31,315 nucleotides of DNA from an uncultured Bdellovibrionales bacterium (GCA_964641975.1 CAZXKY010000002.1:8070-39384), one strand, 5' to 3'; shown: positions 18,078 to 20,390, counted from the stretch's first letter. Notes: generated from the letters alone by a model not told the origin. A program made the numbers and translations.

Positions 18078-18473
18078 CTAAATGAAAATGTTCTCAATGT
18101 GTTTAATCTTATAATTCTTGAAATCTCGACTGAGCCACACGGAGATAGCATCAAAATGATGAGGGTAATCCCAAAGATTATTAATTTTTATATATGAAGT
18201 GGCAATTTTATTGAGTTTTTTTAGTTTTTGGAAGGTAATATTTTCTTCTGGAAGTGTTTCCTGATACCTTTCTAAGTTTCTTGTTTTTACTTCTACGAAA
18301 ATTATTTCTTTATTTTTCTCCGCAATAATATCAATTTCCCCCAACTGTCTGCCTTTAAAATTCTTAAAATTTCTCCCGATTATCTTATACCCTTTTCCCA
18401 CCAAAAATCTGGCAGCTACTTCTTCTCCCTTGGCGCCAGTGCTCTTACTTGCTTTTTTTCTCCAAAAAATCAT
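18078..18473 (-). CDS. yraN: YraN family (UPF0102) nuclease-like protein
   Basis: GAKGEEVAARFL, IIGRNF, GEIDIIA, FVEVKTR, FDAISV. Confidence 0.93.
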   Translation of the reverse strand: MIFWRKKASKSTGAKGEEVAARFLVGKGYKIIGRNFKNFKGRQLGEIDIIAEKNKEIIFVEVKTRNLERYQETLPEENITFQKLKKLNKIATSYIKINNLWDYPHHFDAISVWLSRDFKNYKIKHIENIFI

Positions 18474-18485
18474 ATTATTTCAACC

Positions 18486-18503
18486 AAAAAACCCCTTTCG
18501 GGG
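18486..18503 (-). terminator. Terminator-like hairpin just upstream of yraN
   Basis: CCCC-GAAA-GGGG followed by U6. Confidence 0.65.
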
Positions 18504-19059
18504 AATTTTCCGGCTAAATCTTAACAAATATCGAATAACAATTATTTTTACCCGGTATCTGTCAAGGTTTGGAAACCGGGCGCTACTAACGCCCACAAAA
18601 TAAAATTTTTAAGCTGTAGCGCCCAGTGTTTGTCATGTATTAACATGTTAACTGAAAACACTATAGCCCGGGTGAAAGGCAATTTCTTGTGTTATTTAGT
18701 AACATGTATTTTAGATACATGATTTATCTATTAATGATAATTCTGACTTTTATCATTTTCCTTCTACCGTTCTCTGGCTTTCGCCTTTATTTAGAAAGAA
18801 CTAACTTTTTATTATTTATTTTTATTTTAAAAAGTTTTTTTTGACATGTCCACTCGGAAAAGCAGTTGATAATCTATTTTCCCAAGTGGACATGCCATTT
18901 TTTGTTTTTGTTTTAGGGTCCTCCTGTCAGATAAGGAGGCGGTTCCATTTCATTGAATGAAACGCTTGAATAGTAGAAGAATTCCAATCACAAATAGGGG
19001 GAAATTGTGATTGGAAATTCTTCCACCATTTGAAATATTTGGATTTCAAATAACTTTAT
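18486..19059 (-). ncRNA. Candidate structured non-coding RNA or long leader (~570 nt)
   Basis: Bounded by a near-consensus promoter and a U-tailed hairpin; at least 10 stems; non-Watson-Crick pairs in the two longest hairpins are G.U only on the minus strand; no ORF >60 aa. Confidence 0.55.
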
Positions 19060-19065
19060 ACTCTT

Positions 19066-19094
19066 ATTATACCAAAAAAATATCCTCGGGTCAA
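19066..19094 (-). promoter_or_regulatory. sigma70 promoter
   Basis: TTGACC-17 bp-TATAAT. Confidence 0.8.
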
Positions 19095-19271
19095 AACAAA
19101 AATACAATTAACCTTAAAAAATGCTTCAAATAAAAGATTTCATAAGATGTTAATTTACATTTTGCAGAAAAATATCAAAAAATAGAAATATTGCTATTTA
19201 AAAAAGTAATTTACTTTCCAAAATAATCTCCAGTTCTCCACAGGTTATCAACAGAACTTGAAATTTCACGC

Positions 19272-20390
19272 CTATTCTCCTTCATCCAAAATCCTATCTA
19301 ATACCGCCCACATGCTATTTTTGCTTGTTGCAATGATTAAATGTGTGCTATCGAAAGAATAATCTATTGTAGCTACTTGATCTGGAGTTAAATTAAAATA
19401 CCTGACATTGACTCCCTTATAATTCGCCTCTTGAAAAACAACTTTTTCCTTAGGCAAAGAAATGTCATTCAAGAATAAAGGCAGCAGCTCCCCGGGAAGT
19501 TTAACTTCCTCGCTTTTAATGACAGAGCTGGCTTTTAGCTTGTCGAGCACCTTAACTAGCAAAACTAAGCGTGGATTCCCTGAATCATTATAAGCAAAAA
19601 TAGAAAAATCATCACTCAAATTTTTCAACAGCTCATTGGACAGCTTCAGCTTGGTAATAGCACTAAAAATCGGAAAGGCTATCGGATTATTTTTGTTGTC
19701 TGTAATAATAAACTCTACCGGTTTATTGATTTCCGGATCTTTAATGTCTGAAAATGCTCCAGACATGATCTCTTTAAAATTTTCATAGCTGGGATTTTCT
19801 GTATCTATAGAAAGATAATTTGGCTTATCGAATGAATATTTTAATGGCGTTTTTTCTTCTACCTTTATATCCTCGCTATCCTGAGACGCTTGAACCTCAG
19901 CTTCTTTAAGCTTTTGATCTTCTAATTTTTGTGCTTCCTTCTGAGCAATATTTTTTTTATTGATAAAATAATATCCTCCATAGGCAGAAGCCCCCGCCAC
20001 TACCACGATGATCAATGTAATCCAAATCCATTTCTTTGAAGAAGATTTTATTTGTATGTTTTCTTGCGGTTCCTGCTTATTTGGTTCCTGCTTATTTGGA
20101 ATATTTTGATTAGAAACAGGTTTTTTATCGGAAAAATCAACTATTCTATTTCTTTCTTGCTCGGTTTGTTTTTCTAAAAATGGATTAAAATACTGGCCAT
20201 TTTTAACTTCCGGCTTATTTTCTTTAAATGTAACTCTCTTTTCTTCCTCTGAAACATTCGTTTGCTTGTTTTTAGGGAAAATACCGCTTAAAGCATCCAG
20301 GTCTTCTTGCATGGTATGAATGGGAATATCTTCTTCGACTATTTCCGGATTATCTTTAGTGCTTGTGTTTTCTTTTTTTAAATCTAACAT
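19272..20390 (-). CDS. Membrane-anchored hypothetical protein (low-complexity N-terminus, central TM); paralog of 9579..10313
   Basis: IPIHTMQEDL N-terminal motif, acidic/polar region, TM WIWITLIIVVV, C-terminal domain ...RYFNL...IDY...IIATSK. Confidence 0.8.
   Translation of the reverse strand: MLDLKKENTSTKDNPEIVEEDIPIHTMQEDLDALSGIFPKNKQTNVSEEEKRVTFKENKPEVKNGQYFNPFLEKQTEQERNRIVDFSDKKPVSNQNIPNKQEPNKQEPQENIQIKSSSKKWIWITLIIVVVAGASAYGGYYFINKKNIAQKEAQKLEDQKLKEAEVQASQDSEDIKVEEKTPLKYSFDKPNYLSIDTENPSYENFKEIMSGAFSDIKDPEINKPVEFIITDNKNNPIAFPIFSAITKLKLSNELLKNLSDDFSIFAYNDSGNPRLVLLVKVLDKLKASSVIKSEEVKLPGELLPLFLNDISLPKEKVVFQEANYKGVNVRYFNLTPDQVATIDYSFDSTHLIIATSKNSMWAVLDRILDEGE

Follow-up and report, generated by a model that had tools for sequence, protein, structure and literature searches.

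We analysed a 31,315-nucleotide (nt) stretch of DNA (GCA_964641975.1 CAZXKY010000002.1:8070-39384; called the window below, with positions counted from its first letter), deposited under the name of an uncultured Bdellovibrionales bacterium. The source genome is 741 kb in size and 94% complete, and the order in which our comparisons were made is Candidatus Moranbacteria/Moraniibacteriota, within the Patescibacteria (candidate phyla radiation), whose genomes measure only 0.7-1.3 Mb. A gene-free gap at 18474-19271 separates an open reading frame (ORF) for a membrane protein, ORF372, from yraN. On its minus strand this gap encodes a structured non-coding RNA (ncRNA, 19059-18486), which is almost certainly the product of a real, stand-alone gene and founds a new, order-wide family. 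The gene order ORF372-ncRNA-yraN-dksA-like-lspA is maintained at most loci of the order, and ORF372 always adjoins the ncRNA; in the window the two have the same orientation. Low-complexity sequence makes up a long N-terminal part of the protein, which has one membrane segment; its C-terminal domain of ~120 amino acids matches no Pfam family and is conserved in at least 62 of the 151 class genomes. In the source genus, only 12 nt lie between the U-tract of the ncRNA and the ATG of yraN (terminator to ATG, 18503-18473), which leaves no room for a promoter. Table 1 lists the coordinates.

Table 1. Features of the ncRNA locus, from the upstream to the downstream gene, and structured regions of a sister family
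Feature	Position	Strand	Remarks
ORF372	19272-20390	-	372 amino acids, one predicted membrane segment, no Pfam match
Promoter	19066-19094	-	-35 TTGACC (19094-19089), 17-nt spacer, extended -10 TGGTATAAT (19074-19066), upstream TG
5' leader hairpin, 9 bp	19028-19051	-	Closest relatives only; overlaps start of strand X
P1 hairpin overall	19031-18968	-	~25 bp, 2 G.U, 1 bulged U
Strand X AAAUGGUGGAAGAAUU	19016-19031	-	5' strand of lower P1, pairs with Y (state A)
P1 apical helix CCAAUCACAA/UUGUGAUUGG	18984-19014	-	Near-invariant loop UUUCCCCCUAU
Strand Y AAUUCUUCUACUAUUCAAG	18965-18983	-	3' strand of lower P1 plus 3' extension (toehold); pairs with X or X'
P2 hairpin, 8 bp	18942-18963	-	7/7 pairs compensatory, 96.4% paired
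P3 hairpin CCUCCU/AGGAGG	18920-18940	-	Conserved loop UCUGAC
Conserved A-rich single strand (ACCCUAAAACAAAAAC...)	18898-18918	-	AAAACAAAAA nearly invariant in 43 sequences
Variable expansion hairpin	18843-18896	-	Some lineages only, sequences unrelated
Hairpin AACUUUUU/AAAAAGUU	18803-18836	-	Conserved A-rich loop AAAAUAAAAAUAAA
Near-invariant GUUCUUUC (18801-18794), A-rich internal loop and GGC-GAAA-GCC hairpin (18785-18776)	18776-18801	-	
Strand X' AGAGAACGGUAGAAGGA	18759-18775	-	Downstream look-alike of X; in state B, partner of Y and its extension
Hairpin with variable stem	18733-18757	-	Conserved loop AAGUCAGAA
3'-domain core	18633-18722	-	Nested long-range S1 (18722-18715):S4 (18640-18633) and S2 (18709-18701):S3 (18649-18643)
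Helix AACAC/GUGUU	18693-18689/18661-18657	-	Enclosed by S1:S4 and S2:S3
Hairpin GCC...GGC	18680-18666	-	Inside AACAC/GUGUU helix; conserved loop UUCACCC
Long G+C-rich hairpin ACUGGGCGCUAC/GUAGCGCCCGGU	18575-18627	-	Inner GCY...GGGC stem, A/U-rich loop, then UUUCC
Variable 3' hairpin	18521-18565	-	Missing in several relatives
Intrinsic terminator	18486-18503	-	CCCC-GAAA-GGGG-U6
yraN/UPF0102	18078-18473	-	ATG at 18473
Structured regions of sister family f40	L187:1300-1600, L191:1420-1700, L192:1210-1470, L193:1225-1520		

In a promoter scan, the near-consensus sigma-70 site upstream of the ncRNA scored 11/12 matches, carried an extended -10 element and ranked first in the region, and we infer from it a transcription start near 19059. 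The unit closes with an intrinsic terminator, whose stem comprises just 4 G-C pairs and which was omitted from the pattern-scan list because this stem is short. Promoter, terminator and four hairpins (the leader hairpin, P1, P3 and the expansion hairpin) lie where the preliminary description, made from this DNA alone, had placed them. Its suggestion that the structure is selected on the minus strand is upheld by folding energies: the 575 nt of the minus strand reach a minimum free energy of -181.9 kcal/mol (z = -12.4 relative to dinucleotide shuffles), compared with -154.7 kcal/mol (z = -5.9) for the plus strand. A TTGAC / TGnTATAAT promoter was found in 50 of 51 aligned homologs, 65-100 nt 5' of the P1 loop. 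A hairpin followed by a U-run closes the unit in 41 of ~50 homologs by automatic search and in nearly all of them by eye, with ~400-604 nt between the -10 box and the U-run. Homologs are about 400-600 nt long, relative to ~575 nt here. We rejected a protein-coding reading of the region: no ORF in it is conserved (median length of the longest, 38 amino acids), each frame holds 9-11 stops, and length differences do not follow steps of three.

BLAST searches with the gap against 61 genomes of the order detected the ncRNA in 55 of them, and two covariance models, R1 for the 5' domain and R2 for the 3' domain, added four more (G016, G024, G038 and G056), giving 59 of 61. The two genomes without a match are 86% and 94% complete. 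The ncRNA is single copy in the source genome, and its chromosomal position is fixed throughout the order. In BLAST alignments between families, the identity of the P1 hairpin block reaches 97%, and the exact P1 loop pattern occurs in more than 117 species genomes, which belong to Moranbacteria/Moraniibacteriota. Among ~145 class genomes outside the order, R1 and R2 each returned a single borderline match, located on contigs that have no relation to the syntenic locus, and they gave nothing significant in the syntenic gaps of sister orders. The P1-loop signature pattern had 0 matches in 2.9 million viral contigs.

We also inspected a sister family of the same class (f40), in which the gap between the ORF372-like and dksA-like genes lacks yraN. 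A promoter there (TTGCA-17-TGTTATAAT) leads into a structured, conserved region of ~270-300 nt, which is closed by a G+C hairpin and a U-run. This region has no Rfam match and is not scored by R1 or R2, and BLAST matches with it remain inside the f40 family. It is collinear with the Moranbacteria RNA and shares with it UUAGUUCUUU and a GGGCG..CC...GGG..CGCCC hairpin, the similarities being weak (nhmmer). The f40 region may be a reduced distant relative of the Moranbacteria RNA, and we treat it as a lead only.

The preliminary description had proposed that homologs be collected and checked for covariation. Homologs at the same locus indeed covary, with compensatory changes in 37 of the 42 pairs tested over both domains, as counted in model-based alignments of 73 (3' domain) and 86 (5' domain) distinct sequences. 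In the 3' domain, 97.7% of the cells are paired and all 17 pairs show compensatory changes; the covariation score is 0.602, compared with 0.217 for shuffled alignments (0/500) and no more than 0.115 for slid partners. Values for the 5' domain are similar, with 96.7% of the cells paired, 20 of 25 pairs compensatory and a score of 0.591 versus 0.203 (0/500). The covariation in these alignments shows a consensus fold with two domains, a 5' one made of P1, P2 and P3 and a 3' one made of nested long-range helices and a long G+C-rich hairpin, besides a middle junction and single strands that are A-rich and conserved. The most conserved element is the P1 apical helix, which is 99.5% paired and has 7 pairs with compensatory changes. 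Pairing is likewise maintained in P3, whose stems in relatives read CUCCUU/AGGAG, CCCGA/UCGGG and CUCUG/CAGAG, and in the hairpin at 18803-18836, with the stem variants AUCUUUUU/AAAAAGAU and ACUUUUGUA/UACAAAGGU. At the 5' end, the leader motif UU(G/A)A(A/C)AA is more widely conserved than the leader hairpin. Highly conserved unpaired elements are UUUCCCCCUAU, AAAACAAAAA, AAAAUAAAAAUAAA, GUUCUUU (invariant in the first 20 sequences of the alignment), AAGUCAGAA and UUCACCC. A search of the source genome revealed no distinctive complementary trans site for the P1 loop or the CACCC loop.

In the 3' domain, the nested helices S1:S4 and S2:S3 are 97-98% paired, with compensatory changes in 9 of 9 pairs. 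The S1:S4 duplex is predicted at -9.9 kcal/mol for cognate strands and at -4.95 kcal/mol for non-cognate ones (42/42 sequences), and the S2:S3 duplex at -4.9 versus -2.4 kcal/mol (44/46 sequences). The two stems with CUAAA loops that had been described here can form in this sequence, but S1:S4 and S2:S3 replace them: the local CUAAA hairpins gave no clear signal when cognate and non-cognate strands were compared. Similarly, the long-range 8-bp helix proposed to join 18788-18781 to 18682-18675 is possible in this sequence but has no covarying stack, and its nucleotides belong to two local hairpins. The long G+C hairpin at 18627-18575 is 96-98% paired, and all 8 of its pairs show compensatory changes.

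The expansion hairpin at 18896-18843 behaves differently from its surroundings, as BLAST matches stop exactly at its ends and most alignment rows have a gap in its place. Judged from the alignment, it is a lineage-specific insertion without a counterpart in most relatives. Read on the plus strand, the same hairpin (~23 bp) is followed by a U-rich run, AUUUUUUGUUUUUGUUUU, and resembles a strong plus-strand terminator; no plus-strand gene leads into it.

We compared the ncRNA to known RNA classes. Rfam 15 (4227 models, including OLE, ROOL, GOLLD, HEARO, raiA, riboswitches and group I/II introns) returned 0 matches at or above the gathering threshold in the whole window, and searches of 18300-19300 at E up to 10 gave chance hairpin matches only, all far below the thresholds. 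The Rfam scan suggested earlier as a check has thus been run and matched no family. The proposal of a novel large ncRNA stands, given its own promoter and terminator, its presence in nearly all genomes of the order and its strong covariation. Together, the searches have shown an order-specific, single-copy ncRNA that is near-universal in Candidatus Moranbacteria and lies outside described RNA families.

It could still be argued that the ncRNA is a very divergent signal recognition particle (SRP) RNA, 6S RNA, RNase P RNA, transfer-messenger RNA (tmRNA), group I intron, OLE, ROOL or GOLLD RNA, since SRP and 6S RNAs went undetected anywhere in the genome. We consider this very improbable, the absence of Rfam matches beyond chance hairpins already speaking against it. 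RNase P RNA was rejected because the genome's own RF00010 match, which carries ACAGAAUCCGGCUUACAG, lies on contig C38. This gene (G000:C38:1-421) is truncated by the contig start and scores 31-39 bits, below the Rfam threshold; the low score is due to this truncation, and annotation would miss the gene. The tmRNA (RF00023, 126.8 bits) is located on contig C4, and ARAGORN found no transfer RNA (tRNA) or tmRNA in the window, as the preliminary description had anticipated.

For the SRP, RF00169 matched none of the 31 order genomes and none of the 101 class genomes searched (controls positive 12/14), and RF01854 matched 0 of the 31 order genomes (controls 7/14). The Ffh M domain (PF02978) was found in 0 of 31 order genomes and in all control genomes, and PF00448, the SRP54-type GTPase domain of Ffh and FtsY, gave weak P-loop matches only in 81 class genomes, again with all controls positive. 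FtsY seems to be missing too in this lineage. These searches agree with a 2015 report that ffh and ffs are absent in Parcubacteria (PMC4508563), and we rejected an SRP RNA on the grounds that neither a model match, nor an Ffh M domain in the order, nor an SRP54-type GTPase in the class was found.

RF00013 (6S RNA) had no match in the genome, with a weak model that detected only 5 of 14 controls; 6S RNA was rejected also because the consensus fold is multi-domain rather than a single long hairpin with a central bubble. A group I core at 18486-18682 was dismissed as well: searches at E up to 10 gave no group I match, the segment does not interrupt a host gene, and it is accounted for by the CACCC hairpin, S3/S4, the long G+C hairpin, the variable hairpin and the terminator. 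Lying directly 3' of a same-orientation ORF of unknown function, the ncRNA might be taken to serve a mobile or defence element as its guide or accessory RNA (a TnpB/IscB omega-RNA, a retron or a phage-borne large RNA), and a small-protein gene may be named alongside. Such an origin is extremely unlikely: ORF372 is membrane-anchored and has no Pfam match, the ncRNA is single copy at a fixed locus across the order, and it has neither viral-contig matches nor a conserved ORF. A phage-borne large RNA was rejected specifically on the viral-contig result and the fixed chromosomal locus.

In the 5' half we found one pyrimidine strand, Y, that covaries with two purine strands, X and X'. In the RNAalifold structure of the full alignment, the 3' strand of lower P1 is joined to a segment further downstream and not to its hairpin partner. 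Three segments change in concert, X (19031-19016, GGUGGAAGAA), Y (18983-18965, UUCUUCUACUAUUC) and X' (18775-18759, GAACGGUAGAAGGA); in one lineage they read CUCACG, CGUGAG and UUUCAC, and in a second one GCCAAUGA, UCAUUGGCUUCCCC and GGGGAGGUUGGUGA, respectively. The X:Y duplex is predicted at -17.0 kcal/mol for cognate strands versus -7.9 kcal/mol for non-cognate strands. Y:X' reaches -18.5 kcal/mol, compared with -12.3 kcal/mol for the Y of other lineages, and the cognate combination is better in 43 of 44 cases. Within the downstream ~200 nt, the best partner of Y is the homologous X' site in all 44 of 44 sequences. Y:X' headed the list in an alignment-wide search for covarying stacks, with 11 bp, 91% standard pairs and covariation in 6 pairs; across 72 distinct sequences, pairing with X' involves 13 columns of Y, each with 2-5 pair types. 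Alignment columns 59, 60 and 64-68 serve both helices, and X:Y and Y:X' are thus mutually exclusive. Columns 69-71, just 3' of lower P1, pair with X' only, in 71-72 of 72 sequences, and form what would be a conserved toehold. These findings together make a selected two-state 5' domain well supported, and two competing, co-evolving helices suggest a built-in structural switch.

How the two states may follow each other can be outlined from the order of the strands. Y would first be captured by the upstream purine strand X, extending P1 to a ~25-bp hairpin (state A). X', transcribed ~200-260 nt later, would then bind the unpaired 3' extension of Y and displace X, and the resulting long-range Y:X' helix would enclose the entire 5' domain (state B). 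Compensatory evolution maintains each of the two helices, which indicates that the exchange is a selected step; it may represent an obligatory step of co-transcriptional folding or assembly, or a switch triggered by a partner. One version holds that X:Y is a transient guard that shields Y until X' has been made, so that the mature RNA adopts state B only and no regulated switch exists. A covariation search for a second partner of X found none, the toehold for X' is conserved, and the folding of SRP RNA provides a precedent (10.1101/379222), all of which fit a guard. State A is, on the other hand, predicted to be the more stable one in most homologs, which would not be expected of a mere intermediate, and we consider a guard without a switch possible though rather unlikely. 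It is a sub-case of the explanation that we prefer, the two-state trans-acting RNA set out below, and does not contradict it.

The arrangement of promoter, structured RNA, terminator and ORF is that of a classical attenuator, and the preliminary description had accordingly offered an attenuating leader for yraN and the downstream block as one interpretation. The whole 0.5-kb unit would then act in cis, like an attenuator or riboswitch, and control yraN-dksA-lspA through the terminator. Alternative helices are present in the ncRNA, and a gap of ~7-60 nt between U-tract and yraN, seen in the source genus and several others, makes yraN probably dependent on read-through. The terminator itself argues otherwise. 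Its strands pair with the upstream 3' domain no better in cognate (-6.5/-8.3 kcal/mol) than in non-cognate combinations (-7.0/-8.5 kcal/mol; better in 16-17 of 41), its stems vary freely without covariation with anything upstream, and the competing helices lie ~250-500 nt 5' of it and make no contact with it. In many relatives, either a new extended -10 promoter (TGnTATAaT in several of them) follows the terminator ahead of yraN, or the gap measures 150-170 nt. With more than 12 helices, the size and complexity of the RNA are far beyond those of known leaders, and sequence identity of up to 97% between families is likewise hard to reconcile with this role. Without antiterminator covariation, and with fresh promoters before yraN in several relatives, a regulated attenuator is not borne out, and we regard the cis-acting leader as distinctly improbable. 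In the source genus, yraN-dksA-lspA are nevertheless probably expressed by read-through, because the gap is 12 nt and the terminator stem has four G-C pairs; this modest terminator would then feed the three genes in addition. The ncRNA and yraN there probably form an RNA-led operon rather than a gene with a riboswitch-type leader.

On balance, we favour as the best overall explanation, with a fair degree of confidence, that the ncRNA is a stand-alone, trans-acting core of a ribonucleoprotein (RNP) with a two-state 5' half. The RNA would act in trans as the RNA core of such a particle and not as a leader. Several observations weigh against this explanation. The sole hint of expression is the presence of 14-69% of sampled 31-mers in several RNA sequencing and metatranscriptomic runs, which DNA carry-over could explain. 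yraN, following so closely upon the U-tract in the source genus, fits a leader-like arrangement. The ORF372 family extends to many families of the class in which the ncRNA was not found; with a C-terminal domain more widespread than the ncRNA, ORF372 is not supported as a dedicated partner. The pair table for Y:X' stems from duplex predictions, which report standard pairs only, and its control is the comparison of cognate with non-cognate strands. Lastly, structures with X:Y forced are predicted to be 4.7 +/- 4.7 kcal/mol more stable than those with Y:X' forced, on totals of about -130 kcal/mol, and the nearest-neighbour model prefers state A by more than 3 kcal/mol in 45 of 72 sequences, so that state B would need extra stabilisation.

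A bolder version takes the ncRNA as the catalytic or scaffolding core of a lineage-specific RNP, in which a cellular signal (a protein, a ligand, temperature or a helicase) triggers the toehold exchange from X to X' on Y and thereby gates activity. We put this forward tentatively and think it unlikely to hold; if true, it would define a new class of trans-acting, switchable large RNAs in SRP-less, ultra-small bacteria. Large bacterial RNAs with elaborate structure are seldom newly discovered, and the ones solved so far proved to be ribozymes, RNP cores or giant assemblies. That an ncRNA of 0.5 kb and its consensus promoter are kept in small, SRP-less genomes argues for an important function. 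In the literature searched we found no published description of the Moranbacteria ncRNA and no paper pairing Moranbacteria with Rfam. The mutually exclusive, co-evolving helices provide a testable handle on the RNA, and the alignments and the two covariance models suffice to define the family for curation.

We compared the ncRNA to other systems with related features. Like attenuators and riboswitch platforms, it contains one strand with two exclusive covarying partners (a 1:2 / 2:3 logic) and a terminator before an ORF, but a long distance separates its competing helices from the terminator, with which they have no connection, and the terminator has no covarying alternative partner. In the Escherichia coli SRP (4.5S) RNA, an early 5' hairpin is resolved during transcription by an invading downstream strand, which yields a long-range helix (bioRxiv 10.1101/379222). 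The analogy is one of mechanism only, as the Moranbacteria ncRNA is not an SRP RNA, and here the early hairpin is kept by compensatory changes and equals the late helix in predicted stability. The ssrS-ygfA locus has a 6S RNA gene at the head of an operon with a protein gene. Our ncRNA gene likewise has a strong promoter and lies directly 5' of a protein gene in conserved synteny, with which it is probably co-transcribed; it is ~3 times longer than 6S RNA, multi-domain and without a 6S model match. The closest resemblance in general design is to OLE (RF01071), ROOL, GOLLD and the raiA motif. Their Rfam models do not match the Moranbacteria ncRNA, which occurs in a different phylum (Patescibacteria) and in one order only. 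ROOL and GOLLD occur in phage, where the Moranbacteria ncRNA was not found among the contigs searched, and OapA is specific to OLE, whereas ORF372 is not specific to ncRNA-bearing genomes. To our knowledge, competing helices of the X/Y/X' kind are not a described feature of OLE, ROOL, GOLLD or raiA. OLE likewise adjoins a membrane-protein gene, and all four are, like the Moranbacteria ncRNA, stand-alone genes without obvious function, several hundred nt in length, in which many covarying helices are set among highly conserved single strands.

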